Assembly: GCF_035084215.1 (NCBI RefSeq)
Contig: NC_090346.1
Span: 9,672,001-9,736,000, forward strand
Length of the DNA: 64,000 nt
Reading direction: 5' to 3'
Source of the DNA: Heptranchias perlo
Taxonomy: Eukaryota
The notes under the pieces are model-generated. The model was given only the letters and a program-made list of their open reading frames with translations. It was not told the origin of the DNA and made no database searches. A program made the position numbers and the translations under genes. Below are positions 1,188 to 61,199 of the stretch, in pieces; within the stretch, counting starts at the first letter, position 1; each line of letters opens with the position of its first letter.

Positions 1188-4100
1188 ATCTCCTTCTTGA
1201 ATACATCTAATGACTTGGCCTCCACTGCCTTCTGTGGTAGAGAATTCCACAGGTTCACCACCCTCTGAGTGAAGAAATTTCTCCTCATCTCGGTTCTAAA
1301 TGGCATACCCTGTATCTGTGACCCCTGGTCCTGGACTCCCCAGCCATCGGGAACATCCTCCCTGCATCTAGTCTGTCCAGTCCTGTTAGAATTTTATATG
1401 TTTCGATGAGATCACCTCTCATTCTTCTAAACTCTAGTGAATATAGGCCTAGTCGACCCAATCTCTCCTCATACGTCAGTCCTGCCATCCCAGTAATCAG
1501 TTTGGTTAACCTTCGTTGCACTCCCTCCACAGCAAGGACATCCTTCCTCAGATAAGGAGACCAAAACTGCACACAATACTCCAGATGTGGTCTCACCAAG
1601 GCCCTGTATAACTGCAGTAAGACATTCCCGCTCCTGTACTCAGATCCTTTTGCAATGAAGGCCAACATACCATTCGCCTTCCTAACTGCTTGCTGCACCT
1701 GAATGCTCGCTTTCAGCAACTGGTGTACAAGGACATCCAGGTCTCGTTGCACCTCCTCTTTTCCTAATCTATCACCATTCAGATAATAATCTGCCTTTCT
1801 GTTTTTACAACCAAAGTGGATAACCTCACATATATCCACATTATACTGCATCTGCCATGTTCTTGCCCACTCACCCAACTTGTCTAAATCATATTGGAGC
1901 CTCTTTGCATCCTCCTCACAGCTCACATTCCACCCCAGCTTTGTGTCGTCTGCAAACTTGGAAATGTTACATTTAGTTCCCTCATCCAAATCATTGATAT
2001 GTATTGTGAATAGCTGGGGCCCAAGCACTGATCCCTGCGGTACCCCACTAGTCACTGCCTGCCACCCGGAAAAAGACCCGTTTATTCCTACTCTCTGTTT
2101 CCTGTCTGTCAACCAGTTCTCAATCCATGCCAGTATATTCCCCCCAATCCCATGTGCTTTAATTTTGCACACTAACCTCTTGTGTGGAACCTTATCAAAA
2201 GCCTTCTGAAAATCCAAATACACCATATCCACTGGTTCTCCCCTATCTATTCTACTAGTTACATCCTCAAAAAATGCCAGTAGATTTGTTAAGCATGATT
2301 TCCCTTTCATAAACCCATGCTGACTTTGTCCAATCCCATTAATGCCCTCCAAGTGTCCTGTTATCACATCTTTTATAATAGACTCTAGCATTTTCCCCAC
2401 TACTGATGTTAGGCTAACTGGTCTGTAATTCCCTGTTTTTTCTCTCCCTTTTTTAAATAGTGGGGTTACATTTGCCACCCTCCAATCTGTAGGAACTGTT
2501 CCAGAGTCTATGGAATTTTGGAAGATGATCACCAATGCATCCACTATTTCCAGGGCCACTTCCTTTAGTACTCTGGGATGTAGATTATCAGGCCCTGGGG
2601 ATTTGTCAGTCTTTAGCCCCATTAATTTCCCTCGCACTTTTTTTTTTACTACTGGTTTCCTTCAGTTCCTCCCTCTCACTAGACCCTTGGTTCCCTAACA
2701 TTTCTGGGAGGTTATTTGTGCCCTCCTTTGTGAAGACAGAAGCAAAGTATGTGTTTAATTGTTCTGCCATTTCTTTGTTCCCCAATATAATTTCCCCCAT
2801 TTCTGACTGTAAGGGACCTGCATTTGTCCTCACTAATCTTTTTCTCTTGACATATTTACAGAAGCATTTACAGTCAGTTTTTATGTTCCCTGCTAGTTTA
2901 CTCTCATACTCTATTTTTCCCCTCTTAATCAATCTCTTTGTTCTCCTTTGCTGAATTCTGAACTGCTCCCAATCCTCAGGCTTGCCGCTTTTTCTGGCAA
3001 TTTTATACGTCTCCTCTTTGGATCTAATACTATCCCTAATTTCTTTTGTAAGCCACGGATGAGCCACCTTTCCTGTTTTATTTTTGCGCTAGTCAGGAAT
3101 GAATAATTGTTGTAATTCCTGCACATGTTCTTTAAATATTAGCCATTGCCTATCCACCGTCATCCCTTTTAGTAAAGTTCCCCAATCTATCATAGCAAAC
3201 TCGCACCTCATACTGTCGTAATTTCCTTTATTTAGATTCAGGACCCTAGTTTTGGATTCAACTACTTCACTCGCCATCTTAATGAGGAATTCTTTCATGT
3301 TATGGTCGCTCTTCCCTAAGGGACCCCGCACAACAAGATTGTTAATTAATCCTTTCTCATTGCACAATACCCAGTCTCGGATCGCCTGCTCTCTAGTTGG
3401 TTCCTCAACGTATTGGTCTAGAAAACCATCACGTACACACTCCAGGAATTCCTCCCCCACAGTATTATTGATAATTTGGTTTGACCAATCTGTATGTAGA
3501 TTAAAGTCACCCATGATTATAGTTGTACCCTTCTTACATGCATCTCTAATTTCCTGTTTAATGCCCTCCCCTACATTTCCACTACTGTTTGGGGGCCTAT
3601 AGACAATCCCCAGCAATGTTTTCTGCCCCTTGGTGTTTCTTAGCTCCACCCATTCAGATTCCACATCGTGATTTTCCGAGCCAATATCCTTCCTCACTAT
3701 TGCATTGATTTCCTCCTTTACTAACAACGCTACCCCACCTCCTTTCCCTTTTTGTCTGTCCTTCCTAAATATTGAATACCCCTGGATGTTCAGTTCCCAT
3801 CCTTGGTCACCCTGCAGCCATGTCTCCGTAATCGCAACTATATCATACCCGTTAATATCTATCTGCGCTGTTAATTCATCTACCTTATTGCGAATGCTCC
3901 GCACATTAAGACACAATGCCTTTAGACTTTTTTTTTTAAGATTGCTAGTCATTTTAGTTTTATTTTGCACTATGGCCCTATTTGTTTTTTGCCCTTGTTT
4001 TCTCTGCCTTCCACTATTGCTGCTTCCCTTTCTGCCTTTTGTTTCTATCCTTGTTTCCCCCTCCTGTCTCCCTGCTCAGGTTCCCATCCCCCTGCCATTC

Positions 4101-4982
4101 TAGTTTAAACCTTCCCCAACAGCACTAGCAAACACCCCCGCAAGGACATTGGTCCCGGTCCTGCTCGGGTGTAACCCGTCTCGCTTGTACAGGTCCCACC
4201 TTCCCCAGAACCGGTCCCAATGTCCCAGGAATCTAAATCCCTCCCTCCTACACCATCCCTGCAGCCACGCATTCATCTGGTCTATCCTCCTGTTCCTATA
4301 CTTACTAGCATGTGGTACTGGTAGTGATCCTGAGATCACTACCTTTGAGGTCCTGCTTTTTAATTTATCTCCTAACTCCTTAAATTCATCTTGCAGGACC
4401 GCATCCCTTTTTTACCTATGTCGTTGGTACCGATATGGACCACGACTACTGGCTGTTCACCCTCCCTCTCCAGAATGCCCTGCAGCCGCTCCGTGACATC
4501 CTTGACCCTAGCACCAGGGAGGCAACGTACCATCCTGGAGTCACGTTTGCGGCCGCAGAAATGCCTATCTGTTCCCCTTACAATTGAATCCCCTATCACT
4601 ATAGCCCTGCCGCTCTTCTTCCTCCCCTCCTGTGCAGCAGAGCCAACCGTGGTGCCACGAACTTGGCTCTTGCTGCTTTCCCCTGATAAGCCTTCTCCCC
4701 CAACAGTATCCAAAGCGGTATATCTGATTGAGAGGGAGATGGCCCCAGGGGACTCCTGCTCTACCTGCCTAGTCCTTTTACTCTATCTGACAGTCACCCA
4801 TTTCCTTTCTGCCTGCGTAATCTTTACCTGCGGTGTGACCACCTCACTGAACGTGCTATCCACGATAGTCTCAGCATCACGGATGCTCTACAGTGAATCC
4901 ACCCGCAGTTCCAGCTCCGAAATGCGGTTAGCCAGTAGCTGCAGCTGGACACACTTCCTGCACACATGGTCGCCAGGGACAT
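1188..4982 (-). mobile_element. Near full-length decayed CR1 LINE (subfamily B): ORF1 with SGNH esterase-like domain, ORF2 with APE endonuclease and RT
   Basis: ORF1 pieces 4100-4980 (VIGDSIVRG, CLPGARVKDV, VHIGTND); endonuclease 3089-3970 (ITETWL, YRPP, GDFN, SDH); RT 1285-2637 (GVPQGSVLGP, FADD); broken by stops and frameshifts. Confidence 0.93.
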
Positions 4983-5059
4983 TGTGTGAGGTGCAAGATT
5001 GCTGCCTCATTTCCCTACACAACAGCTGCTGCATTTCAAGGTAACTTGTGTGTGAAGCA

Positions 5060-5550
5060 ACCACAACTTGCCTTTAGTGTAGTAAAAGTTCCCAAGGTGT
5101 TTCACAGGAGAGTAATCAGACAAAAATTGACACCGAGCCAAAAAAGGCAGCATTCGGACAGGTGCCCAAAAGCTTGGTCAAAGAGGTGGGTTTAAGGAGC
5201 GTCTTAAAAGAGGAGAGAGAGAGATAGAGAGTCGAAGAGGTTTAGGGAGGGAATTCCAGAGCTTAGGGCCTAAGCAGCTGAAGGCACTGCCGTCAATAGT
5301 GGAGTGATGAAAATCAGGGATGCGCAAGAGGCCAGAATTGGAGGAGCGCAGAGATTTCGGAGGGTTGTAGGGCTGGAGGAGGTTACAGAGATAGGAAGGG
5401 ATTTGAAAACAAGGATGAGAATTTTAAAATCGAGATGTTGGTGGACCGGAAGCCAATGTAGGTCAGCGAGCACAGGGGTGATGGGACTTGGTGTGAGTTA
5501 GGATACGGGCAGCAGAGTTTTGGATGAGCTCAAGTTTATGGAGGGTGGAA
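5060..5550 (-). mobile_element. L2-type LINE 3' fragment
   Basis: LADLHWLPVHQHLDFKILILVFKSL resembles the L2 ORF2 C-terminus; similar to 6870-7430 and 48230-48740. Confidence 0.7.
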
Positions 5551-5795
5551 GAGCACTTGAGATGTTCCTGAGAGACCTGATAAATGCGTCTATCCTTCTT
5601 TTCCTACTTCTTGATCTATCTCATCATCTTTCCAACTCTTTCCAACCCTGCTAGTGTCCTGCACCCTTGCATCTCATCCTGTCATCTAGCTTTCTTAATT
5701 TGTTAGTAAAGTATTTGGAGAAACTGCCTGTGAAATGGTGAGGATTGGTGAACAAGCACATTATATTGACCTATTTTTTGTTCTCTTCAAACCAG

Positions 5796-6001
5796 TGATG
5801 GACAAGAATACAGCGGAAGGCTACGAGCCTCATGTTGTTGCTGAAGCCGTTCTCACGGCGATTTGCAGGAGGAAGAAGGATGTCCTGCTGGCGGGGTTAC
5901 TGCCGACTGCCGCTGTTTATTTCCGAACCCTGGTTCCCAGTCTCTTCTTTCCCATCATGGCAGCCAGAGCTAAAAAAGAGCGCAAAATGAAGACTAATTA
6001 A
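5796..6001 (+). CDS. DHRS7B: Last coding exon of dehydrogenase/reductase SDR family member 7B
   Basis: Acceptor ttttttgttctcttcaaaccag ends 5795; VMDKNTAEGYEPHVVAEAVLTAICRRKKDVLLAGLLPTAAVYFRTLVPSLFFPIMAARAKKERKMKTN* matches the DHRS7B C-terminus from recall; tail-to-tail with TMEM11 as in other vertebrates. Confidence 0.93.
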
Positions 6002-6869
6002 CCATGTCCTGAGACTCCTAAAACACTCTCCCTACGCACAGTACTACCGAGGCCATTTGGTGCAATTCTTCCGCGACTGGTCGACAAACTGACTGGTGAT
6101 CGTTTGTGACCAAATATGTCTCCTGAACTCCATCCGTGTTTGCTTTGCTGATTTTCCAGACTTTTTGTGACACTCTGTTGGTTACACTGAAAGCGGGATA
6201 AATTATATTTATTTTTAAAGAAAAAGATTGAATGTGAGCCAAAAAAACTCTTGATTTTACACCCACTCAAAGCAGGATTCTGTTTTTAAAAAAAAAAGCA
6301 GAACAAATGTGTAAGATTAAATTCACACCCCATAAGTTTGGTGTCAGTGCAAAGTCGAAAGCACTTTTCACAGATGCTAAACGTGGAGTGGAGTGGAGTT
6401 TCTGTAATCATGTCAGGCCCTGAAGCCAAATGCAGATTGCGCTTACACCATCACTGCAAAGTGAAACCGCTAGTTATAGTGTAAATGCCTCCAGAAGTAT
6501 TTAAATGTGTAAGTGATTTGTTTACATTATGTACCGGAATTTCCATGTCACATTTCTGTGTAAGCGAATAGAGCTGATGGATAAAGGTTGGATATTTGTC
6601 AGAAACCAAGGACCTGCCACTCTGGATATTGTGCTAAATTCTGCATGTGTGCGAAGAATAAAATATGGTTATCAACTCCCTGTGGTGCAGCACAAAGCCA
6701 TGTCGACCAGGCAGGTCCCTGCTGGGGGGCTGGGTCAGCTGATTTCAGCTGGCCAGTGGTGGGAGCATCACTGCTTGCCTCGGGGGGAGAGGTGGGGATA
6801 ACCAAAGGGTTCTACTCCTGATTGTTATCCAGTCAACCCTGCTGAAAAAATGTTTGTAGATGTTTGATG

Positions 6870-7430
6870 AGGATAAGATTGCACCTGCCTCAGTTTATTG
6901 CTGCTGAAACCCTCATCCATGTCTTTGTTACCTCCAGACTCGGCTATTCCAATACTCTCCTGGTCGGCCTCCCACCTTGCACCCTCCGTAAACTTGAGCT
7001 CATCCAAAACTCTGCTGCCCATAACCTAACTCGCAACAAGTCCCGTTCTCCCATCACCCCAGTCCTCGCTGACCTACGTTGGTCTCCCGGTCCATAATAC
7101 CATAGAAAAATACAGCACAGAAGGGGGCCATTCGGCCCATCGTGTCCGCGCCGGCTCGAAGAACAACCAGGTGCCCATTCTAATCCCACTTTCCAGCACC
7201 CAGTCCAGTAGTGCCTCAAATTTAAAATTCTCATCCTTGTGTTCAAATCCCTCCATAGCCTCACCTTTCCGTGTATCTGTCACCTCCTCCAACTCTCAGA
7301 AAACTCTGCACTCCTCCAGTTCTGGCCTTTTGTGCACCCCGATTTCCTATACCTCGCCGTTGGTGACTGTGCTCTGGCATTCCCTCTCTAAACTTCTCCA
7401 CCTCCCTCTCCTTTAAGTCGCTCCTTATAA
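6870..7430 (+). mobile_element. L2-type LINE 3' fragment interrupted by a short minus-strand CR1 3' end (~7095-7200)
   Basis: HVFVTSRLGYSNTLLVGLP...LELIQNSAA...SPITPVLADL; insert contains ggccattcggcccatc typical of CR1 3' UTRs here. Confidence 0.72.
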
Positions 7431-8047
7431 CGACCTCAGGACATCCCAAAGTGCTTTTGAAATGTAGTCACTGTTGTAATGTAGGAAACGTGGCAGCCAA
7501 TTAACGCACAGCAAGGTCCCACAAACAGCAATGAGATAATGACTAACTAATTTTTTTTTAGTGATGTTGTTTGAGGAATAAATATTGGCCAGGACACTGG
7601 GGAGAACTCCCCTGCTCTTCTTCGAAAAAAATGAACTTCAATCAACTAAAAATTATGTCCCATAGATATTCTGGAAGGAGAATGCCAAGTTATAATACTA
7701 GTGTCCTACCACAATATTAGGAAAAAAAAAGACTTGCATTTATATAGCGCCTTTCACGACCCCAGGACATCCCAAAGTGCTTTACAACCAATGAAGTAGT
7801 TTTTGAATTGTAGTCACCGTTGTAATGTAGGCAATGCGGCAGCCAATTTGCGCACAGCAAGCTCCCACAAACAACAATGTGATAAATGACAGGATAATCT
7901 GTTTTTTAGTGGTGTTGGCTGAGGGATAAATGTTGGCCAGGACACCGATGAGAACTCCCCTGCTCTTCTTCGAAATAGTGCCATGGGATCTTTTACGTCC
8001 ACCTGAGCAGGCAGACGGAGCCTCGGTTCAGTGTCTCAGCGGAAAGA
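7430..8047 (-). mobile_element. Two Deu-domain (SacSINE1/AmnSINE-like) SINE pieces, 7430-7625 and 7730-8047, separated by ~100 bp of non-SINE DNA
   Basis: Reverse complement contains gatcccatggcactatttcgaagaagagcaggggagttctc...gtgtcctggccaa and an L2-like tail tgaaaggcgctatataaatgcaagtc; family name from recall. Confidence 0.75.
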
Positions 8048-11000
8048 CGTTAAACTGAAATAGCATATGTGGAGAGTGAGGTGTATTACCTATTACCATA
8101 AAGGCACCTCTGACTGGAGAAACTACAACTCCCATGTGTCAGTATGCAGAGCCTAGTTGCTGGCTGTTAATTGGAAGCAGAGCTGATGAGACCATACCTT
8201 CATTGGGACTTTACTCAATGGGGTTGAAATTCCAATCCGGCCCCAGATGCATTTGTGGTGTAAGTGCCGGAAGAGACGGGAAATAGGGCAGAATCCAGTT
8301 CCACTAGGATTGCCACTGCCCCGTTCAGGAAATTCCAGTCGGCGGGGGCAGATTCCACCCACCTCCCCTATCAACGGGGTGTGGCGAAGGGAGTATCCAG
8401 CTCTCCCCAGGAAATTCTGCCGGTACCTCTCTTGGTAGGCCCAATGAACCTGTGCCTGTCCCGAGATCTACAGTGAGCTCCATGATTCTGCTGCACAACC
8501 TGAGATGTGCAATTTAAAAAAAAATCTACCCTAGGGAGAGAGCGTATCGATTGCCACCAGGTTTGAGGCTGGTTACAGATTTGGATTTGGAGCAGATAAT
8601 GTGACTGCAGTGGCAGTGTGAAGTGCTTTCACTTTGTACCTCATACACATGGTCAGTGAGATTTCCTGGACTGGTTTAGATCGCCTGATGGGATCGGAGA
8701 GAGAATTTCCAAAGAATAATACACAGCTGGAATCCTGCACACCCTCCCCTCGCTAACATGGCTGGAATCATTTTAGTTGTCATTACAGAACCCGTGTTCC
8801 TCTCCTCACCCCACCTTTTATGAAGGTGATAACTGATGCTGGTGTCCAGCTCCGCAGGTGGCAGTGGCCATTTGGAACCTTAAGCAAGTGGCCATTCCTC
8901 GCCTGTAAATCTTCAATGAGTGATGGCAGGCTATGTGACCAGTGGGGACATCAGTGCTGAGCCTGACCTCATGCATAGATGTTTCCTGCCCAGCAGGAGT
9001 CACAGGCCAGCAACCAGGGGATGGAACCCTGCTTTATGTTTTCCTTCTCTAGATCCAGGGATATGAAAGCCAATCGTAGTGTTTGGCTATAGGCAGCTGC
9101 GATAAGCTAAGTCAGCAGAAACCAAGGATTGAATCCTGTAAGGTTCACAACCAAACCATTTTGCGCACTTAATAACTGATCCTTTAGGGGACCTTATAAC
9201 CTGTAACATTTGCAGCCAACCTAACACAATACACCCTTAATTAGTGAGGCACCAGCAGTTGTGAGAAAATGGATGGAAAAGTAAATAAAGAGAAACTGTT
9301 CCCATTGGCGGCAGGGCTACTGGGAAAGAGTGGGGGAATGGGACTAACTGGATTGCTCTTACAAAGAGCAGGCACAAGGTCAGGGGCCAAATGGCCGCCT
9401 TCTGTGCTGTAACGATTCTATGTTAATGACATGGTAGAAATGTAATCGAGAGGCTCATACTACATCGGAACAAAAGATTAATAATCAAGACATTGATTTT
9501 GGTGTGAACTTTACGGAAGAAATTTTAGAACTACCCCAATGCTGGCAGTGGCCAGCGTGCATGTTGACAGCTACTGCACTCTGCAATTAACGTGTGAGCA
9601 AGTGACATTATTACTGTAGGGTTATCGAAAAATAACCTGCAGCAGATAATTCTATGGCTAGTTTGTGTCGCTGTTAATGACACCATGGCCGTAAAATTAA
9701 ACTGTGATAATAGCAAGCAGACATTTGTACAAAATTCCTTTATCTCTATTTGAACAGAAATATTAACTTGTTTATTTCAAATAGATTAACACCTCCATTA
9801 AGATATTGGAGAGAGGAATTGAATACATATGCATTTAGCATTCATACATAGCATAACTCCACACTTAATAGGTCCTTGGGGTTTCAGTACTGAGTTTTCA
9901 ACTTTTACACACTTGCTGTGACCTGTAGGTTTCCCTTTTATTGAATTTTAGATCCACTCATAAACTGCGACAAGAGCTAATTGATCATGGTTAGAATTAA
10001 TTATTGACTGGCTGGAACTTTGCATTAACACCTGCAACAAGTAATGATTTGATTACACAGATTCTTTATTATTAATCTGTGTAATTAAATCATTTTGTTG
10101 CAGAAAGGAAATGTTGCACAAAATATATAATTAAAAGTAATTGACCATATTCTCATCTCACATTCATTGTTCCAGCCAGAGGCACTGCATAGCGATCATA
10201 ATGGGTAATTTATTTCCACCCCCCGCCCCTCCCCTGGCACTGAAGCCAGTTTGCAGTGCCCCTAATACTGTTGCAGTCAGCACACAGTGGGGATTGAACC
10301 TGGAACCTTTCTGATCTGTATGGTTGAGTACACCACGGTCCATAATTTGCTGCCAAAATAGCAGGGCATTTAACGGCACTCACCATTATTGTGTAATCGT
10401 CCAGCAACTTGTAGCGAGGAAGAGATACCCTGTGAATCGTCACAAGTCGCTGGATGATTTGCGCTGTTAGCCGTGTGAAAATGGCAGCTCGCTCTCAGAT
10501 TTCCCTTAGTTTCATGAAGTTGCTGAATTTGCGCATTAATTAGCAATTAAACTCACCAGAGAAAGTTAGGGCTGGTACTTAACAGTGCAAGTATTTTTTA
10601 ATCAGGAGATTTATGTTCCTGCAATACCACTCAACCACTCCGGCCCAGGAAGGGAACAATTTAAACTGTGGAGCCTCATTCCTACAGGTAGTAAACGTTG
10701 TTGGGGATTTTTAAGTGTAAAATTTTTTTTTAAATTCTTACTTTTCCTCTTAATCCAATCTATCTTTCTCTCTCTTTACATAATTTAACTCTAATTCTCC
10801 CTATTTCCTTCTCCATCGTGCCTCTGTTTCTTTATCCTTAAATCTCGTTGGTGAAGGAGATTAGGTTGTTGATCCCATCGTTCACCAAGGTGCCAGATGC
10901 CCGTTGCCCTCGCCGTTATCAGTTTACACTTCCAGCAAGTTACAGCGCAAAAAGATTTTTGAGCCTAAGGATGCAGGATAAAGTATAATTAATGGCACAT

Positions 11001-12034: not shown

Positions 12035-12243
12035 AAAAACAAACACACAAATGCTGGAAAGTTGCAATAACAGAAAATACACAGCAGGTCCGTCAGCATC
12101 TGGCAAGAGAAAAGATATGCTAATGTTTCGGGTAGTGACTTCTTCATCAGAATCTTCTGATTAAGAATCTCTTACTGAAATATAACCTCTCTCTTCAGGC
12201 GCTGGTGAATCTGCATGTGTATTTGCAGTGTTTTCTATTTTTA
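12035..12243. mobile_element. Old fold-back non-autonomous element with a decayed hammerhead-like motif in each arm
   Basis: Imperfect inverted arms centred near 12153 (cttcatcagaa-tc-ttctgattaag); minus strand reads CTGATGAA...CCCGAAAC. Confidence 0.55.
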
Positions 12244-17054: not shown

Positions 17055-17571
17055 TCATACTACACAGATCTCGCAGATTTTCTTAACACAGTACATCAAG
17101 GATGCCAATGCTATAGTGTTGTGGAGTCTTTTCCTGTGAATATCATCTTTTCTAACCAGAACCACGGGCGTGGATGAAGTGAGTGTGTTCAGAGGTAACC
17201 GGGAGAGTTTGCAGGTGTCATACTCCACTTGGTACTTGCAGCAGGGGTCGAATTGCCATGAAATGCCATATAGAGCTGCGCAGGCCACACTGATGGCCCC
17301 GATAGGCAGGGTTATGTAACGGGTGTATTCTGGAGCCAGTGCTAATGGGGTTAACAGGCAGACTGATCCCGCGATAACAGATGTTTTATGCAAGCAATTC
17401 CCGACTGTGATCCAGCGTGCCGTCTCATCCCCAATTCGGGTTGGCTCAATGATGATATACTTGTACTGGGTCTCCAGGGCTTGCTCCAGCTCATATTCAA
17501 ATTGCTCATGTGCGTTCTCCCCATTGTAGATTTCACGGACAATATAACAGTCTGTTGAATTCAGTGTTCCC
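17055..17571 (-). CDS. TMEM11: Transmembrane protein 11 (mitochondrial), coding exon 2
   Basis: DCYIVREIYNGENAHEQFEYELEQALE...WQFDPCCKYQVEYD...RKDDIHRKRLHNTIALA; acceptor ttttttttacctctgcag before 17571; phase fits exon 1. Confidence 0.97.
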
Positions 17572-17849
17572 CTGCAGAGGTAAAAAAAAAGCATGTAACA
17601 TGTAAGATGGGAAATGAGGGAGACGAGAATTTATAACAATCTGGCAACTCTTAGGGACATCAGCCGAGAAGCAGCTGTAGTTAAATTGAAGTACGTCATT
17701 TCCCCCCACCCTCCAACCTACAGCTTAAAGAGGACAGCAAAATGGGATACATTAGTTGTGGCAATTTTAGTTCAGCTCACAGATTTTTTTTAAAAACTAG
17801 TTATTTATAATTCTTCATCAAAAAAAATTAACGCCATTGATTTATAAGA

Positions 17850-41434: not shown

Positions 41435-42212
41435 ATGTAAACGATGTCAATAGACAAGGTTGTAGAATTTCACAAAAAGCAGTTCAAAGATTTTAAAACA
41501 ACACAAACTTCAACAATTATTGCGAACGAAGACTAACTTTAAAAAAAGTTATCCCAAAAGATTGTCGAGTTTATGCACAAGTTTTACATGTGCATTTTGG
41601 GTGGGTATTTACTGTCCTGCATGAAGCAGATCAGTCACACAATTGAAAAAACTAACTGGGTTTTAAAAAAAACTACAGTATATTTGGCTAAAATTTAATT
41701 AAATCCATCTTTCTAATGTCACAAATCAATGTTTGTGGAGAAATAAATGTATGTGGTTACAATTTTCACTCCACATCTATAAGGGGCCAACAGAATGAGA
41801 ATGTATTGTATCAAGTGCATAGTGTTAGGTTACTGAGGTGACAAGATGGTGCTCACTATCAGAATATTTATAAGCACATGTCCAAAAAGTTTTTTCAAAT
41901 AAACCTACAGGTTTGATTAAAAATCTGAGCGTTATTAATAGTCCCAATACTGCCATTTTTGAAAGCAACCCAACATCTGATCAAGGGTGAACACTTGTTA
42001 AGTTTGCTTAACATCTGGTGAAACAAAATCAAAATGAGGGCTTTTCATTCAGGAAGAGGTTTGAGCATTTTCTCCCAACCCTGGGATCCACAGTACTGAC
42101 AAAAGGAAGTTACACACATACATCATGACTGGTTCCACAGCATTCTCCCAAACTCTGTATTTAATCTATTATGAGTCCACCAATTCTTGCAATTCTGAAT
42201 TGTATCTACAGT

Positions 42213-44651
42213 AACCAACTAGAGAACAGGCGATCCTAGACTGGGTATTGTGCAATGAGAAAGGATTAATTAACAATCTTGTTGTGCGGGGTCCCTTAGG
42301 GAAGGGCGACCATAACATGAAAGAATTCCTCATTAAGATGGAGAGTGAAGTAGTTGAATCCAAAACTAGGGTCCTGAATCTAAATAAAGGAAATTACAAA
42401 AGTACGAGGTGCGAGTTGGCTATGATAGATTGGGGAACTTTACTAAAAGGGATCACGGTGGATAGGCAATGGCTAATATTTAAAGAACATGTGCAGGAAT
42501 TACAACAATTATTCATTCCTGTCTGGCGCAAAAATAAAACAGGAAAGGTAGCTCATCCGTGGCTTACAAAAGAAATTAGGGATAGTGTTATATCCAAAGA
42601 GGAGACATATAAAATTGCCAGAAAAAGCGGCAAGCCTGAGGATTGGGAGCAGTTTAGAATTCAGCAAAGGTGGACAAAGAGATTGATTAAAAGGGGAAAA
42701 ATAGAGTATGAGAGTAAACTAGCAGGGAACATAAAAACTGACTGTAAAAGCTTCTATAAATGTCAAGAGAAAAAGATTAGTGAAGACAAATGCAGGTTCC
42801 TTACAGTCAGAAATGAGGGAAATTATAATGATGTGGAGATGCCGGTGATGGACTGGGGTTGACAATTGTAAACAATTTTACAACAATTATAATGGGGAAC
42901 AAAGAAATGGCAGAACAATTAAACACATACTTTGGTTCAGTCTTCACAAAAGGAGGACACAAATAACATCCCAGAAATGTTAGGGAACCAAGGGTCTATT
43001 GAGAGGGAGGAACTGAAGGAAACCAGTATTAGTAAAAAAAAGAAAGTGCTAGGGAAATTAATGGGACTAAAGGCTGACAAATCCCCAGGGCCTAATGATC
43101 TACATCCCAGAGTACTAAAGGAAGTGGCCCTGGAAATAGTGGATGCATTGGTAATCATCTTCCAAAATTCTATAGACTCTGGAACAGTTCCCACAGATTG
43201 GAGGGTGGCAAATGTAACCCCACTATTTAAAAAAGGAGGGAGAAAAAACAGGGAACTGCAGACCAGTTAGACTAACATCAGTAGTGGGGAAAATGCTAGC
43301 GTCTATTATAAGATGTGATAACAGAACACTTGGGAGGCATTAACGGGATTGGACAATGTCAGCATTGGTTTAGGAAAGGGAAATCATGCTTAACAAATCT
43401 ACTGGAGTTTTTTGAGGATGTAACTAGTGGAATAGATAGGGGAGAACCAGTGGATGTGGTGTATTTGGATTTTCAGAAGGCTTTTGATGAGGTCCCACAC
43501 AAGAGGTTAGTGTGCAAAATTAAAGCACATGGGATTGGTGGTAATATACTGGCATGGATTGAGAATTGGTTGACAGACAGGAAACAGAGAGTAGGAATAA
43601 ACGGGTCTTTTTCCGGGTGGCAGGCAGTGACTAGTGGGGTACCGCAGGGATCAGTGCTTGGGCCCCAGCTATTCACAATATATATCAATGATTTGGATGA
43701 GGGAACTAAATGTAACATTTCCACGTTTGCAGACGACACAAAGCTGGGGTGGAATGTGAGCTGTGAGAAGGATGCAAAGAGGCTCCAATGTGATTTAGAC
43801 AAGTTGGGTGAGTGGGCAAGAACATGACAGATGCAGTACAACGTAGATAAATGTGAGGTTATCCACTTTGGTTGTAAAAACAGAAAGGCAGATTATCTGA
43901 ATGGTGATAGATTGGGAAAAGAGGAGGTGCAATGAGACCTGGGGGTCCTTGTACACCAGTCGCTGAAAGCGAGCATTCAGGTGCAGCAAGCAGTTAGGAA
44001 GGCAAATGGTATGTTGGCTTTCATTGCAAGAGGATTTGAGTACAGGAGCAGAGATGTCTTACTGCAGTTGTACGGGGCCTTGGTGAGACCACATCTGGAG
44101 TATTGTGTGCAGTTTTGGCCTCCTTATCTGAGGAAGGATGTCATTACCATGGAGGGAGTGCAATGAAGGTTTACCAGACTGATTCCTGGGATGGCAGGAC
44201 TGACGTATGAGGAGAGATTGGGTCGACTAGGCCTATATTCACTAGAGTTTAGAAGAATGAGAGGTGATCTGATTGAAACATATAAAATTCTAGCAGGACT
44301 AGACAGACTAGATGCAGGGAGGATGTTCTCGGTGGCTGGGGAGTCCAGAACCAGGGGTCACAGTCTCAGGATACGGGGTATGCCATTTAGAACCTAGATG
44401 AGGAGAAATTTCTTCACTCAGAGGGTGGTGAACCTGTGGAATTCTCTACCACAGAAGGCAGTGGAGGCCAAGTCATTAGATGTATTCAAGAAGGAGACAG
44501 ATATATTTCTTAATGCTAAAGGGATCAAGGGATATGAGGAAAAAGCGGGAACAGGGTACTGAGTTAGACGATCAGCCAGGATAATTTTGAATGGCGGAGC
44601 AGGCCCAAAGGGCCGAATGGCCTACTCTTGCTCCTATTTTCTATGTTTCTA
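42213..44651 (+). mobile_element. 5'-truncated CR1 (subfamily B) in the SMCR8 intron, antisense to the gene
   Basis: Near-identical to the reverse complement of 1188-3400; RT motifs; intact 3' UTR ending ctcctattttctatgtttcta. Confidence 0.93.
42831..42884 (-). mobile_element. 54-bp Penelope-like 3' terminus inserted in the CR1
   Basis: Matches 57773-57826; duplication aattataatg at 42821-42830 and 42885-42894; sister CR1 (2780-2795) lacks the insert. Confidence 0.9.
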
Positions 44652-44755
44652 GTACTAAGCTTAGCTTTTGCTCCAACATTCAGTCAGATCTGAATTCACT
44701 ACAAAGTAAACCAGTCCTTAAATATAGATATATTGTACCCATATTTAATACGCAC

Positions 44756-47133
44756 CTCTGAAGTCCAATGAGTTTCCAGGTCTGTAAATGGTTGACATGC
44801 AAAGGGAATGTTACCCATTGCTTTATAGAGTCTGCAGCCCTGCCGCAGTGGGGGACAAATATTGACAAAGCATTGACAAGCTTCTTGACTTTTCCTTCTT
44901 GTTCACCTACTATTACAAGTGTCCGCCCAGACAGCAAAGAAAAAATTGCCTGCTGTGCAAAAGAATATTGCCTTATAAACCACAGCGAATTCTTCCCAGA
45001 ATGCTTCTTGCGCTTTCCAGAGAGCCTCTTTGATGGACTGGTTGGGAAGGCTGGAGATGGAGTCCTATCAGAACATAAAGATGCACTAATGTAACTCATG
45101 TTGTCCAAGTACTCATCTACTGGAATTTGAGCTGTTTCTCTATTACCAGATAAATCACTGTACTCTTTTTCGTAGGTAGATAATACTTGATCAGCAGCAT
45201 CATATAATCCATCTCCCTCATTTTGCTGTGGGAAATCACCGTGGAATATTCGGTCTATGGTTTTACTGCGTTGTGGTGGAACATTGACTACTCCATCACT
45301 GTACTCTTCAGTTACAAATGTAGGTACTGATTTAGTAAAATTTGGGCTTTCTGTCCCAATACAACAAGTGGAGTCTACATGCTCAGATAAAACAGACAAT
45401 GTTATGGTATTATTTTCAACATCAGCATTGCTAAATCCATTACCACAGTTTAGATTTGCATCAGTTTGCACAAGATCTGTACTCAGCTGCCTTTCTTCTT
45501 CATTGTCTAAAGCAGGTTCTTCTTCATGTATTGCACTTGGATAGGTGGCCTTAAGATCTTCGGGTATCAGAGATTCGGTGGTACTGAGAACTTCAATGCT
45601 GTCCTCACTGTTTGTCCGCTTGGTGACTGCAAATTTCCTCCTCACAACTTCTGGATGCTGACACTGCAAGTTTGTTTGGCTGTCAGACTTGGAGGAAAAT
45701 ACTGGGGCTGGGCAGGATTTTTCTGTGCCCAGCACTTCAATGCTTTCACCACTACTGATACTTCCCTTTTCTTTCCCTTCCAATTCAAGATAGTCTGAAG
45801 TTCCTAGAGGATTTTTACATGGGATCGAATCAGCCACAGTCCCATGGTAACTCTCTACATTGACTTGCTCCAGTTTAATAGGCACAGACTCCACACAAGA
45901 CTTGTACGATTCAAAGCTGGTGGCCTCATTGGATAAACAAGGGTGTTCCAAAACCTTTGGACCGAGAATATTAAAACCTGGAAGCAGTTTGTCACAGTGT
46001 TGTTGCTTTTCAGTTTGTTCTTCATCAGTAAAGAGCAGTGGGTCTTCAAACAGAAAGGAAGTTATTTGCTGCTGTTGAAGAAGCTCTTTTTCAATTTGGC
46101 TGGTAATCAAATAGCATACATCACCTCTGAAGAATTTCTCTACCTGCCTAAGTTGTTCTAAAGTTTGATTAAAAAAGTAACTATCGCAAAGTTCTTCTAA
46201 GGTTTTCAGCTTTTTTTCAAAGCATTTTGCGGACTTAGCCCGTGTGAATTTGGGCGTGTAAGATCTTCTATCGGAAAAGCTAATTTTTTCACACAATTCG
46301 TCTGTATTCGGCAACTGTTCCAGCCCGGTGTCGGATTGTTCTATGCCACTAACTGGCTCATAAGAAAAATAATCGCCATCTTTCGTTTTTTTGTATGAAT
46401 AAGTTCTAATCTGCATTAAAAGATCTTGATGTTCAATTATACACTTTTCCACATTGGCTAACTCGTTGGCTTTTTCTATTGCTACCGACGAGTAGTATCC
46501 TTTATCGTTGGATCTTTTCTGGATTTCCGTTTCATTATGTAACACATTCCGAGTGTACTCCAGGTCCTGGAGTTTCTTTTCCAGTTCATTGGCAAAAGCT
46601 TTCCTATTTCCAGTTTTCAAACACTCGGAGGCTTTGGAAAACTCTTCCGAAAGCTCCTGGAACTCCTCCATGATCTTGTTCTCATCGGCGGAGATGTAAG
46701 CCATGCAGAACGGCCTGACGAAGCCTCTCGCCTCCAAGTCGTAGAGAGTCAAGTGATGAACGTAGGCGAAAGCCCCTTCCTTGGAGTCACCCAGCACCAC
46801 CTTGGAGTCTTCCACGAAGTTGAGCTTGGGATAGCTGGTCCCAGGAGGGTGCCCCACGAAGGAGGCTTGATAATCCACAGACATGATCCTGAGAGAGAAA
46901 TAGTTGAGATCAAAGTTACCGCGGGCATTGTCCGGGATCGTTAACAAAGGCTGAGGGCCTACCTGCTCGGAAAACTCGGAAATCAGAATGAAATCCTTCT
47001 CGAATTTAGCCGTGGCCGTCTTGGACCAGGGGTTTTCGGGTTGGAATTGGAAAGGGGGCACCGAGTCTTCGCTGTACTGCTCCCCATAGTCATCATCGCG
47101 GGTGAGAGCCACGACATCAGGGGCAGTGATCAT
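44756..47133 (-). CDS. SMCR8: SMCR8 (C9orf72 complex subunit, longin/DENN) coding exon 1
   Basis: MITAPDVVAL...DFILISEFSEQVGPQPLLTIP...HHLTLYDLEARGFVRPFCMAYIS; ATG 47133-47131; donor AG|gtgcgt; 2378 nt, phase 2 fits exon 2. Confidence 0.97.
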
Positions 47134-47269
47134 ATTTCCACCTTCCCAGACAGGGTATATAAAGCACAAAAAAAGAGCAACCCCCTTAGCAACGCCACCA
47201 CCTCCTCACAAACCACCATTTTGTTTCCATCTGACCGGGAAAGGGGGGGGGGGGGGAGGGGGGTGTGTG

Positions 47270-49900: not shown

Positions 49901-51426
49901 CTACCTGACAATGTGGAAAATTGACCAGGTATGTCCTGTCCACAAAAAAAAAGCAGGACAAATCCAATCCGGCCAATTACCGCCCCATCAGTCTACTCTC
50001 AATCATCAGCAAAGTGATGGAAGGTGTCGTTGACAGTGCTATCAAGCGGCATTTACTCACTAATAACCTGCTCACCGATGCTCAGTTTGGGTTCCGCCAG
50101 GACCACTCGGCTCCAGACCTTATTACAGCCTGGGTCTAAACATGGACAAAAGAGCTGGATTCCAGAGGTGAGGTCAGAGTGACTACTATTGACATCAAGG
50201 CAGCATTTGACAGAGTGTGGCATCAAGGAGCCCTAGTAAAATTGAAGTCAATGGGAATCAGGGGGAAAACTCTCCAGTGGCTGGAGTCATACATAGCACA
50301 AAGGAAGATGGTGGTGATTGTTGGAGGCCAATCATCTCAGCCCCAGGACACTGCTGCAGGAGTTCCTCAGGGCAGCGTCCTGGGCCCAACCATCTTCAGC
50401 TGCTTCATCAATGACCTTCTCTCCATCATAAGGTCAGAAATGGGGATGTTCGCTGATGATTGCACTGTGTTCAGTTCCATTCACAACCCCTCAGATAATG
50501 AAGCAGTCCGTGCCCGCATGAAGCAAGACCTGGACAACACCCAGGCTTGGGCTCATAAGTGGCAAGTAACATTCGCACCAGACAAGTGCCAGGCAATGAC
50601 CATCTGCAACAAGAGTCTAACCACCTCCCCTTGACATTCAATGGCATTACCATCGCCGAATCCCCCACCATCAACATCCTGGGTGTCACTATTGACCAGA
50701 AACTTAACTGGACCAGCCACATAAATACCGTGGCTACAAGAGCAGGTCAGAGGCTGGGTATTCTGCGGCGAGTGACTCACCTCCTGACTCCCCAAAGCCT
50801 TTCCACCATCTACAAAGCACAAATCAGGAGTGTGATGGAATATTTTCCACTTGCCTGGATGAGTGCAGCTCCAACAACACTTAAGAAGCTCGACACCATC
50901 CAGGACAAAGCAGCCCGTTTGATTGGCACCGCATCCACCACCCGAAACATTCACTCCCTTCACCACTGGCGCACTTTGGCTGCAGTGTGTACCATCCACA
51001 GGATGCACTGCAGCAACTCGCCAAGGCTTCTTCGACAGCACCTCTCAAACCAGTGACTTCTACCACCTAGAAGGACAAGAGCAGCAGGCACATGGGAACA
51101 ACACCACCTGCACGTTCCCCTCCAAGTCAGACACCATCCCGACTTGGAAATATATTGTAAACAATTTTACAACACCAAGTTACAGTCCAATGATTTTATT
51201 TGAAATTTACAAGCTTTCGGAGAAATCTATCGCCGTTCCTTCATCGTCGCTGGGTCAAAATCCTGGAACTCCCTTCCTTACAGCACTGTGGGAGAACCTT
51301 CACCACACGGACTGCAGCGGTTCAAAAAGGCGGCTCACCACCACCTTCTCAAGGGCAATTAGGGATGGGCAATAAATGCTGGCCTTGCCAGCGATGCCCA
51401 CATCCCGTGAACGAATAAAAAAAAAA
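49900..51426 (+). mobile_element. 5'-truncated poly(A)-tailed LINE of a distinct CR1/L2-group family, containing a Penelope-like insert
   Basis: ANYRPISLLS, QFGFR, DIKAAFDRVWH, GVPQGSVLGP, FADD; ends gaataaaaaaaaaa. Confidence 0.85.
51154..51221 (-). mobile_element. Diverged Penelope-like terminal fragment
   Basis: Resembles 57807-57875 with several mismatches; flanked by gaaatatat / gaaatctat. Confidence 0.8.
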
Positions 51427-56240: not shown

Positions 56241-57857
56241 AATGACGATGAAGTATTGGAATCAATTTGATTCTGTGTGGCAGATTCAGTAATCCAAAGC
56301 ATGAGACAGGTAAGTATGCTGTACTCCAGAGCATTGGTCATGATTGACCATCATTGATGAGAGGTGTATCTTTCAGCTTGGGCTGAGATTCTTCACACTT
56401 GGCTCCAAATAACAATTTAATGGGTAGGCTTGACAAGCAGTGAAAGCTCATCAGAACTCTAAGCTGGTAAACTACATGGTTATAGTGGGTTGAATTCCAT
56501 CAGTGCACCTATACATACATAGGGACCCCTAAGCCTTGACTTTTGTCAACTTGCACCTAAGTTCTCTGTGCTTGCATAAGTGGACTGACCCCCATAGAGA
56601 GAAAGTGTTTACTTTATATCGGGCAAATGGCAACTCGATTTACGTGGACATTGATTTCAAGATTCTTAGGCATGTTGATGTGTTTCAATGCATGAGGTTG
56701 ATGCAAAAACTGAATACCCTCTGTTGCAATTCGTGCTACTTCCCAATACTCTTTATTCGTGCTCACTGCAAAAGTCAACTTCTATACCAAGCCTACACTT
56801 CCTATGAATTGGAAGTTTGACCTTGTGCGTAAAATATCTGGGATAGTGAGCCACTGAGTGAACAATCTACTGTTACGCTAACAGGATATGCCCCCATGTA
56901 ATGCAGATCTCTCTGATAGGCTGACAGATTGTGTAGCTCAGGCTAAAACTCCCAATTTGACTACCATGGGAGAGAAATATACACAGAGGCATGTTGTACC
57001 AGCAAATGAAAATAACAGATACAGTACTTCTACCAATTTTTATCTGAGGACAACATAAGCATTTCATAATACTTGAGTCCTTATTTCAGATGAAATAGAT
57101 ATGGCTGTAGCTGCAGTAACTTGGATGCATGGTTTCCAAGTGATCTGGAAGCACTAGGGCTGCCATACAGATATACCTTGCTGAACAGTTTGCTCACATC
57201 GCAGAACAAAAAAGTCTGTTCCTGATTTTAGTAAGTTTCCTTGAGGTAAACGAGTTTTTAATCAGTCAGCGTCCAGGTAGTAGGAGCTTAAACTACTGGC
57301 CTTTGGGTCTTCTAAAAAGCTTAGCCTAATGTGACCATCGTGCAACTATTGTCACCGTGACAATCTTGCATATATTAACATTTCACATGCCAGAAATTTT
57401 CATCTGAAACCTATGAAATAACGTAACTATTGCCCTCAAAGGATCTAAAATTTGATGAGCTACAGTTCAAAAATCTTTGGGCCTTCTAAGTCTTTTACAG
57501 CTAGGAAAATTTCTGTTGCAATTTAACAAGTGATGCCCCCAGATCAAGTCATGTTTTTGCTTTACCAAGGGACAGATAAACTCCTAGCAGACATAGCAGT
57601 TAACAGAAACCAGTTTGAGTTTAGCACAGCTTAAGTTTCATATATTAAGATATAATGCTCAAATGTTTATGATTGAAGGAGAAAGGATCTCCATTCCATC
57701 ATAACATACACCAGAATCTGATCAAGTGTATTGGATTCAGGAAACTATAGTAAATGCAGTTCATTAATGATGATGTGGAGATGCCGGTGATGGACTGGGG
57801 TTGACAATTGTAAACAATTTTACAACACCAAGTTATAGTCCAGCAATTTTATTTTAA

Positions 57858-57898
57858 ATTCACAAGCTTTCGGAGATTTTCTCCTTCCTCAGGCAAAT
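57858..57898 (-). ncRNA. Minimal hammerhead ribozyme motif (left arm)
   Basis: Mirror of 59411-59451. Confidence 0.7.
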
Positions 57899-58148
57899 GT
57901 TTCAAGATCTCCTTGAAGCCTACGCATTTATACATATTGAACAATAATACATGGTGTTTACAGACTGCCCCTGCAACTGCCCGTTGCCAAGGCAATCACC
58001 GTGTTCAGACAGAGAGGTGTTACCTGCAGAACCTCCGAATACACATTCAACAAAAAAACAAACAGGGAAAAAAAACAGAGAAAAAAAAAACACAGAGAGA
58101 GGCAGAAACATCCGGAAGGCAGAGAGAGCCAGCAAATGACCCATTATA

Positions 58149-58652
58149 TTAAAAACAGATAACATTTGTTCGCTGGTGGGGTAACGTGTAGCGTGACATG
58201 AACCCAAGATCCCGGTTGAGGCCGTCCTCATGGGTGCGGAACTTGGCTATCAATTTCTGCTCGACGATTTTGCGTTGTCGTGTGTCTCGAAGGCCGCCTT
58301 GGAGTACGCTTACCCGAAGGTCGGTGGATGAATGTCCATGACTGCTGAAGTGTTCCCCGACTGGGAGGGAACCCTCCTGTTTGGCGATTGTTGCGCGGTG
58401 TCCGTTCATCCGTTGTCGCAGCGTCTGCATGGTCTCGCCAATGTACCATGCTCTGGGGCATCCTTTCCTGCAACGTATGAGGTAGACAACGTTGGCTGAG
58501 TCACAGGAGTATGAACCATGCACCTGGTGGGTGGTGTCATCTCGTGTGATGGTGGTATCTGTGTCGATGATCTGGCATGTCTTGCAGAGGTTACCGTGGC
58601 AGGGTTGTGTGGCGTCGTGGACGCTGTTCTCTTGAAAGCTAGGTAGTTTTCT
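58149..58652 (-). pseudogene. 5'-truncated Penelope-like ORF: Cys-rich linker plus GIY-YIG endonuclease (left arm)
   Basis: PCHGNLCKTC...CDSANVVYLIRCRKGCPRAWYIGET...LRQRMNGHR...VGEHF...GLNRDLG; no RT domain. Confidence 0.9.
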
Positions 58653-58656
58653 AGGT

Positions 58657-59160
58657 AGAAAACTACCTAGCTTTCAAGAGAACAGCGTCCACGACGCCAC
58701 ACAACCCTGCCACGGTAACCTCTGCAAGACATGCCAGATCATCGACACAGATACCACCATCACACGAGATGACACCACCCACCAGGTGCATGGTTCATAC
58801 TCCTGTGACTCAGCCAACGTTGTCTACCTCATACGTTGCAGGAAAGGATGCCCCAGAGCATGGTACATTGGCGAGACCATGCAGACGCTGCGACAACGGA
58901 TGAACGGACACCGCGCAACAATCGCCAAACAGGAGGGTTCCCTCCCAGTCGGGGAACACTTCAGCAGTCATGGACATTCATCCACCGACCTTCGGGTAAG
59001 CGTACTCCAAGGCGGCCTTCGAGACACACGACAACGCAAAATCGTCGAGCAGAAATTGATAGCCAAGTTCCGCACCCATGAGGACGGCCTCAACCGGGAT
59101 CTTGGGTTCATGTCACGCTACACGTTACCCCACCAGCGAACAAATGTTATCTGTTTTTAA
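58657..59160 (+). pseudogene. 5'-truncated Penelope-like ORF: Cys-rich linker plus GIY-YIG endonuclease (right arm)
   Basis: Mirror of 58149-58652, open from the palindrome centre to TAA 59158-59160. Confidence 0.9.
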
Positions 59161-59410
59161 TATAATGGGTCATTTGCTGGCTCTCTCTGCCTTCCGGATG
59201 TTTCTGCCTCTCTCTGTGTTTTTTTTTTCTCTGTTTTTTTTCCCTGTTTGTTTTTTTGTTGAATGTGTATTCGGAGGTTCTGCAGGTAACACCTCTCTGT
59301 CTGAACACGGTGATTGCCTTGGCAACGGGCAGTTGCAGGGGCAGTCTGTAAACACCATGTATTATTGTTCAATATGTATAAATGCGTAGGCTTCAAGGAG
59401 ATCTTGAAAC

Positions 59411-59451
59411 ATTTGCCTGAGGAAGGAGAAAATCTCCGAAAGCTTGTGAAT
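59411..59451 (+). ncRNA. Minimal hammerhead ribozyme motif (right arm)
   Basis: ATTTGC-CTGAGGA-A-GGAGA-aaa-TCTCC-GAAA-GC-TT-GTGAAT; followed by AATAAA 59456-59461. Confidence 0.7.
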
Positions 59452-61199
59452 TTAAAATAAAATTGCTGGACTATAACTTGGTGTTGTAAAATTGTTTACA
59501 ATTCATTAATGATGCCTTTGCTCATGGTAAGTTCTAATGGTCTGTACACTTACCGCCCAGAGAAAATGAACTTTGGATAGAAGTGGCTGGGTGTGGTGGT
59601 CTCAACCAACGACCATTATTGAAACAGAGTCTGTTCGTTTTTTGAGGGGAAATTAGTTGCTTGAAAAGGAGAAATATTAAAGGGTATGGGGAGCGAGCAG
59701 GAGATTGGGTTTAGACTAGGTGGCTTGTGTGGAGAAAAAAGTACGTGCAGACTTGATGGGCTCAGTGGCCCATGGTTGTGCAGTGACATTCTATTAATGG
59801 ATAACAATCGTCATACTCACAGTGAGTGGCAAACTAACTAACACCGCCATCGGTCAAATCTCCGGAGTATCTGGAAAAGTACATTCCAATACCCTGTTTA
59901 CTGTGTTTTGCAATTTGTTCTGCAGCTTTTGCTGGAAGGGGAGGTCCACACTGGGCAACAAATGTGTAAACTGTATATGGATTGGCTGCTGGGGCGAATA
60001 AAGAGGCCACGCCAATGGCACATTAACCATGCTCACTGCCAGTGCTTTACTTCTGGAGCAGAATCACCCCCCAGAGGCGCATAGCTTGTCCCATCTCACA
60101 GCACACCCTCTGAAAGTGATTCTTTAATATTACGGGGAATCCAACACACAGGATTTTCAAACATAAACCTAATTTTTACACGTTTACATTCTCATCATCC
60201 TTTAATTCTGATATAATTCCCTGGTGAATACAATAAAGCAGTACTTTTAGTTACTAAAGCACTTTAAACACTAACCAGCAGCAAATTCACCCTTAGAAAA
60301 GCAGAATACTAATGAAAGTATCATGAGATTTCAAATGATTATTTATATTTGGTCATGTAACTTGTGTACAATTCTATTAGTTCTGAGTAGTAATATCCTG
60401 TGGTGTCTAACAATTAAATTGTATATTATCACAGTTCACGTTTTTTGACTTGTGAAATAGTTACATTGGAGACTGAACATCGTGCCTTATTTGGGGGAAC
60501 TCATAATCAAAGGCTGTGATTGGCTAAATTAGTCTTCTAAAAGTGCTGGTATACTCCCCTTGGACCATCATATTAGAATTTGTTATCATTAGCCCTTTAC
60601 ATTAAGGTTATTTATTTGCTGCTGCAGAGCCTATTGATCACTTTTAGCTGTACTGGAACTTAATGAGTCATTAATCACTTTTAATTTATATTGTGTGTGT
60701 CTCTCTCTGGCACCCAAATATAATTTCAAAAAACTTGTGGGAATATTGAACTGGACAGTTGTTTGACCATTGCTGGTGATTTTTGACATGAGACAAAACT
60801 GCTTGTAGAATGGTCAGTGGTGTGATAAGTCACTTGATATTTTCGCAGCTTCAAGTTAATTGCTTGCCATTATTGTCCCTAGAACACAAACTCGGGTACA
60901 TAAGCTGCACTGTTGTAAATTGAGTGCGAAAGTGTGCGCAAAGGATGACTACTGGGTTTTAAATTATTGGCCATTGGTCTCTCTTGAGGTCAAGTTGGGT
61001 AGAGTGCACGACAGTTTATATTGTACATGGCCTATTGGAAGGCGTTAGCATGGTGGCTGCCTCAATGTCCTTTTCTCATTCCGAGCTTTGTTATGTAAGA
61101 TTAGTTGTTGCAGTTCTTTGGGTTGTCAGTAGATGGTGCCGAGAGAACAACTTTCAATAACATTGACTTGCTCTGATTCAGCAACCAATTCAGTCAATG

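Follow-up and report, generated by a model that had tools for sequence, protein, structure and literature searches.

The 64,000-nucleotide stretch of Heptranchias perlo DNA analysed here (the window) carries, at positions 59411-59451, what its sequence identifies as a genuine minimal hammerhead-ribozyme motif; it belongs to the terminal repeat of a young and very abundant Penelope-like element (PLE). Minimal hammerheads of such repeats have been known since 2014, and the motif itself is ordinary. Our preferred reading, which we hold to be probable, is that the hammerhead lies in the first 45 nt of a TATA-driven RNA, that it cuts slowly and that the RNA copied into the genome is mostly uncut. 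A ribozyme that heads the message and stays uncut in the templates would shift the question of its function away from unit-length processing and towards cap removal or translation control. The roughly 80,000 copies, the intact tandem masters and the natural stem variants provide material on the role of PLE hammerheads, which has been called unclear (PMC8557442).

The hammerhead motif and its copies in the window

Stem I of the 59411 motif pairs a 5' strand at 59411-59416 with the 3' strand GTGAAT at 59446-59451 (6 bp, including two G.U pairs), and the core consists of CTGAGGA (59417-59423) and GAAA (59438-59441). One extra unpaired base, A59424, separates CTGAGGA from stem II, which has 5 bp (GGAGA 59425-59429 with TCTCC 59433-59437) and a three-base AAA loop. 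GCTT follows GAAA, the predicted cut falls after 59445, and a palindromic AGCT replaces stem III. A second copy, at 29125-29165, has the stem II variant GGAGG (29139-29143) with CCTCC (29147-29151) and a predicted cut after 29159. Every feature reported in a preliminary description of this DNA, including the stem II variant, was found in its place.

This layout is that of the minimal hammerheads described in the pLTRs of metazoan PLEs, including Neptune and Poseidon of fishes (Cervera and De la Pena, 2014; PMC4209133). The shared traits are CUGANGA and GAAA with an NUH triplet in type I order, an unpaired base between positions 9 and 10.1 (A59424), a G10.1-C11.1 pair (G59425-C59437) and a stem III cut down to a palindromic stub, here AGCT in 15 of 15 haplotypes. 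The location in a terminal repeat and the predominance of scattered single or inverted copies are likewise shared, and the identity proposed earlier, a minimal type I hammerhead motif of a PLE, is supported by these published traits. Stem II is shorter here than in Schistosoma (5 bp vs 7-8 bp) and the copies are far more numerous (about 80,000 vs 2,000-9,000 in the genomes counted in PMC4209133). Sharks are not named in the results and discussion of that study.

The ViennaRNA centroid consists of stems I and II for both the 59411 and the 29125 copies, with weak folding z-scores (-1.23 for the bare 59411 41-mer and -2.03 for the 29125-29165 copy). Within a 207-nt leader stem I is predicted to be mostly open (probability 0.04), which weighs against the preferred reading, and a six-base self duplex of the palindrome is computed at -4.3 kcal/mol. 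The motif search suggested as a check succeeded with a descriptor requiring stems I and II, which has three matches in the window, all of the same family, and one match in 300 dinucleotide shuffles; it failed with the Rfam covariance models, none of whose hammerhead families matched the motif even at E 10. The loose core pattern is at chance level in the window (9 matches vs 8.04 expected). This last count, the weak z-scores and the lack of an Rfam match are what a chance resemblance, carried passively by a young repeat, would have in its favour. The rarity of the full descriptor in shuffles, the published location in a terminal repeat and the stems that stay paired across subfamilies already largely refute such a resemblance, and we find it hardly conceivable.

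The 59411 motif lies near the outer end of an 848-nt perfect inverted repeat (57806-58653 with 58656-59503), and the element has left further copies in the window:

57760-57772, plus strand: 13-bp target-site duplication that bounds the inverted repeat (right copy 59502-59514)
57773-57805, minus strand: optional 'tail' extension, on the inverted arm only; in intact units it extends to the ORF start codon
57806-58653, minus strand: 5'-truncated arm in inverse orientation, matching the complement of the direct arm at 100%; it has a mirror hammerhead at 57858-57898
58636-59160, plus strand: 3' piece of the element ORF, with a CX4CX2C linker and GIY-YIG endonuclease; the RT part is gone by 5' truncation
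58656-59503, plus strand: direct 5'-truncated element copy, 837 of 841 aligned bases identical to a unit of the intact tandem locus L055
59377-59383, plus strand: TATA-like box, 69 nt upstream of the cut, a putative promoter
59406-59410, plus strand: predicted RNA start of the 59411 subfamily, with short-copy 5' ends at -36 to -40 (mode -39 = 59407)
59411-59451, plus strand: the type I minimal hammerhead detailed above (stems I and II, core, extra A, palindrome AGCT)
29102-29214, plus strand: short insertion of a second subfamily, with the hammerhead at 29125-29165 and an element match from -45 (29115)
51154-51223, minus strand: copy of a further variant, 5'-truncated within stem II (near 51218), in a LINE fragment
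41315-41436, no strand assigned: minute pair of element ends in fold-back arrangement; the truncation lies downstream of the hammerhead, and the plus arm bears the tail

The third hammerhead copy (57858-57898, minus strand) and the partial copy at 51154-51223 had both been overlooked in the preliminary description. Each arm of the inverted repeat carries the end of the ORF with a weak GIY-YIG match (Pfam E 5.4e-4 for the fragment 58636-59160, under the curated cut-off). The 59411 copy retains its TATA-like box, has no RT and no tandem partner, and by its truncated sequence cannot encode RT. The insertion at 29102-29214 is flanked by a 12-bp target-site duplication (29090-29101 / 29215-29226), and none of the three window insertions inspected shows microsatellite targeting.

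Two decayed hammerhead-like cores of another repeat family also occur in the window (29041-29075, plus strand, and 12116-12150, minus strand); they read CTGATGA and differ in stem II and in downstream sequence. The first of them lies about 30 nt upstream of the site that received the 29102-29214 insertion.

The intact element and its relatives

At the intact tandem locus L055, three hammerheads lie 3,083 nt apart around 902-aa ORFs, which encode an RT, a CX4CX2C linker and a GIY-YIG endonuclease in that order. Pfam identifies RVT_1 in the 902-aa protein (E 3.3e-10, above the cut-off); GIY-YIG is not listed by Pfam for the whole protein, and its motif is readable in the sequence. Six loci have such units head-to-tail with a period of 3,069-3,086 nt and a hammerhead in each unit, and the ORF starts 93 nt downstream of the predicted cut. 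With the hammerhead in its pLTRs, the element is by these sequence features an endonuclease-bearing PLE, and it is of Neptune type by the linker criterion. It shares with the Neptune clade (PMC8557442) a single ORF with RT, then a CX2-5CxxC linker, then a C-terminal GIY-YIG, as well as pLTRs, tandem units, an inverted truncated arm and an optional tail of 30-40 bp.

A close comparison is offered by PAc, a Poseidon element of the anole (Frangieh et al., 2024; PMC11167929), which also has tandem units, a tail at one end and a hammerhead near the ORF start. Unlike PAc, in which the ORF starts within stem II, the element described here starts its ORF 93 nt past the cut, and it has a Neptune-type Cys linker in its protein. 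The non-LTR retrozymes of animals, reported in one chondrichthyan among others (bioRxiv 10.64898/2026.07.22.740005), share the type I hammerhead, which they owe to the terminal repeats of PLEs. They form tandem arrays that are short and non-coding, whereas the unit here is coding and 3.08 kb long (ORF-bearing units of 3,069-3,086 nt in six loci) and the short copies are single or inverted. Titles and abstract openings retrieved from the open literature mention no shark PLE hammerheads and no copy ends that track a TATA box; supplements could list shark motifs.

Genomic copies were counted by sequence patterns, with reversed-pattern controls giving zero. The core frame is kept in 80,517 copies (pattern with the stem II interior free), a 30-mer spanning the cut occurs 43,013 times and a tail-side 24-mer 65,560 times.

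We further note several features of the wider family. Four loci (L144, L145, L147 and L148) belong to a related but older family, which shares the core, has TATATAT as its box and a stem I of 4 bp, and is a source of deeper covariation. Mixed traits of two subfamilies or long tree branches are seen in L128 (G000:C1:5949562), the minus arm of L054 and L025, hinting at template switching or chimeras. A cluster of three short copies at G000:C1:3996800-4012700 (L104, L105) is present three times as a local segmental duplication, and its duplicates were dropped before counting. Very short head-to-head fold-back pairs are common on G000:C1 (e.g. L008, L098, L112, L122); complementarity within stem I, or a small palindrome, is often found at their junctions, and the tail is usually on one arm only.

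Covariation and constraint on the fold

The fetched loci yielded 152 full frames with 56 distinct sequences, 16 of them seen at least twice; removal of one fold-back artefact left 15 haplotypes for alignment, two of which are represented by the window copies. All 15 haplotypes have the same C-U-U triplet, the same palindrome and the same core bases apart from position 7, which is G or C; loop II varies. Across the alignment 97.6% of 164 stem cells are paired, against 23-49% in slid-structure controls; shuffle values for the alignment are not probabilities, because the haplotype rows are related. The covariation called for earlier is present, in that three of the 11 stem pairs have changed on both sides, but the independent events behind it are few (about three). 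The downstream tail matches the core in conservation, which by itself is therefore not specific. Since about three two-sided events appear independent, the fold looks selected across subfamilies, of which there are at least four in these data, and the earlier claim of selection in at least two subfamilies is borne out.

The specific change first offered as compensatory, from A-U to G-C in stem II, has held up in part. Both states exist, but the pair is the weakest support for the fold because it is loop-closing and tolerant of mismatches, of which there are 18 among 100 copies listed out of 80,517. Those 100 listed copies have G-C in 44, A-U in 24 and A.C in 16, the rest being G.U (12), C-G (2) and G.G (2) by hand count; of the two free pairs further in, one is intact in all 100 and the other in 99. 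A tree of 24 long copies, built from upstream sequence alone, places the G-C, G.U and A-U states in one weakly resolved lineage, which is consistent with a stepwise path G-C / G.U / A-U at this pair.

Pair 10.3-11.3 gives stronger support: both sides have changed in 2,563 copies (G-C in 99 of 100 listed). This double change represents one subfamily and one event; the subfamily also carries a compensated stem I pair, and the loop-closing pair is A.C in 86 of 100 double-change copies listed. A double change at 10.4-11.4 was considered as covariation and rejected: it occurs in only 6 copies, and we read it as post-insertion decay because the partner arm is unchanged in 2 of the 6.

The fold could also have lost its ability to cut and persisted because the RNA leader needs it for binding or folding. 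Such a history would suit a genome without a trace of cutting (see below) and the very slow cutting of published minimal hammerheads (PMC4209133), but the pattern of constraint is catalytic, with the C-U-U triplet fixed and position 7 alone varying in the core across 15 of 15 haplotypes, and we consider it very unlikely.

The predicted RNA start and the role of cutting

Of 36 long references, 34 have a TATA-like box at a distance of 67-76 nt upstream of the cut, and the other two have a degenerate form of it; between box and motif the references diverge in base sequence and by indels. Against these references we mapped the 5' ends of 138 tail-bearing copies (124 distinct) from the first 6.1 Mb of C1. 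Ends fall 30-49 nt upstream of the cut in 57 of the 124 distinct copies, at 50-54 nt in one and beyond 290 nt in 32; an anchor spanning the cut supplied 33 of these copies, and the tail-anchored subset has 40 of 91 at 30-49 nt.

The position of these ends differs between subfamilies. In the 59411 subfamily (box at -69), 69 of 99 ends lie at -36 to -40 with a mode of -39 (hand tally of 100 listed of 1,105 matches, one indel row dropped). The subfamily of the 29125 copy (box at -75/-76) has 35 of 94 ends at -36 to -40, a mode of -45, at which the element match of the window insertion itself starts (29115), and two ends beyond -48 (hand tally of 100 listed of 4,909 matches, six deletion-variant rows dropped). 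The difference is significant in these hand tallies of listed matches (Fisher p 7e-6; medians -39 and -43), with overlapping distributions (30 of 99 ends of the 59411 subfamily beyond -40, 14 of 94 of the other at -40) in which microhomology where fold-backs join blurs the positions. Each mode lies 30 nt from the box of its subfamily, and about 30 nt is the usual spacing between a TATA box and the start of transcription. The 29125-copy subfamily also has an initiator-like TCATTTC, with A at -46. These observations suggest that the element RNA likely begins some 30 nt past the box and a short distance ahead of the motif.

Promoters within the terminal repeat have been described in Drosophila virilis (PMC2377424) and Adineta vaga (PMC3846280), and the A. 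vaga pLTR has a putative TATA box (TATA/Inr). The D. virilis Penelope promoter, the only one mapped for Penelope, is TATA-less and internal, which counts against the TATA-driven start proposed here. The passages on these promoters draw no link between copy 5' ends and a box.

The pile-up of 5' ends might instead reflect a stall or template switch of the RT after it has unwound the hammerhead, which would account for the many short copies that are fold-backs with stem I complementarity at their junctions and for the ends at -36 to -40 in both subfamilies. A stall should produce one distance from the fold, yet the edge shifts from -40 to -46/-48 with the box. A third subfamily, with a degenerate box at -69, also argues against it, since 8 of 9 short arms inspected by eye end at -37 to -42. 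We judge a stall to be quite unlikely.

Under the preferred reading, with a start set by the box, the TATA-like promoter of the terminal repeat would drive a capped RNA starting 4-11 nt before stem I. The element protein would begin reverse transcription downstream, at tail borders, by analogy with the anole element (PMC11167929), pass the uncut ribozyme and run off where the RNA starts, so that copies of 100 nt would retain the whole hammerhead. Such run-off would place the hammerhead within the first 45 nt of the message, and the tens of thousands of copies would form a DNA record of the RNA start of each subfamily. Cutting would be slow and would need either a second copy, pairing via the palindrome, or the element protein, and most of the RNA copied into the genome would therefore likely be uncut. 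In published work the minimal hammerhead is inactive as a monomer and of low activity as a dimer (PMC4209133), and cutting by the hammerhead of PAc depends on protein, while insertion in vitro can do without this hammerhead (PMC11167929). Uncut RNA is the main insertion template of PAc (PMC11167929), a likeness that we propose for the Heptranchias element. The cut, when made, would strip the message that carries the ribozyme of its capped 40-nt leader or, alternatively, trim read-through RNA from an upstream tandem unit.

If cut RNA commonly served as a template, starts at +1 would be expected. For positions -2, -1, +1, +2 and +3 of the cut, the copies that start there number 100, 64, 110, 88 and 153, as counted with start-position patterns that each detect about half to two thirds of junctions, so that 5' ends of genomic copies are no more frequent at the predicted cut than at neighbouring bases; +1 starts make up less than 1% of the family. 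An apparent excess at the cut (9 of 100 listed; 110 vs 64, p 6e-4) vanished once positions -2, +2 and +3 were counted. A variant with one inserted base seems to account for more than a third of the listed +3 rows, and microhomology in stem I for many of the +1 starts. The claim that the ribozyme processes the element RNA thus fails to find a counterpart in the 5' ends of genomic copies. Circles that are cut and religated restore the junction and are therefore invisible to this comparison, and the flat +1 starts leave room for religation or for cutting of RNA that is never copied.

Processing of the element RNA, as in the preliminary description and the 2014 model, could also be obligatory, with paired hammerheads cutting tandem transcripts to units that circularise and are copied by rolling reverse transcription into tandem inserts. 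The head-to-tail units, 3,069-3,086 nt apart with one hammerhead each, and the invariant palindrome agree with it, and religation would hide the cut in DNA copies. Short copies nevertheless end at a box-dependent upstream position that is absent from a circle, copy starts have no peak at the cut, and anole hammerhead mutants insert normally in vitro, with no reads ending at the cut (PMC11167929). We regard obligatory processing as unlikely. A more specific version of the preferred reading, possible if rather doubtful, is that the hammerhead acts as a self-decapping switch, which would stay uncut while the RNA is scarce and remove the cap only when two copies meet or the protein binds. Self-decapping of this kind would limit translation or hand the RNA from the ribosome to the RT.

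Elsewhere in the window, two minus-strand host exons are apparent: an 841-aa open frame with a Folliculin-domain match (44680-47205), which we take to be probably SMCR8, and a 191-aa frame with a Mito_morph_reg match (17055-17630), presumably TMEM11. Two LINE copies (1-4075, minus strand, and 42210-44500, plus strand) are 93-96% identical and lie in opposite orientation about 40 kb apart.
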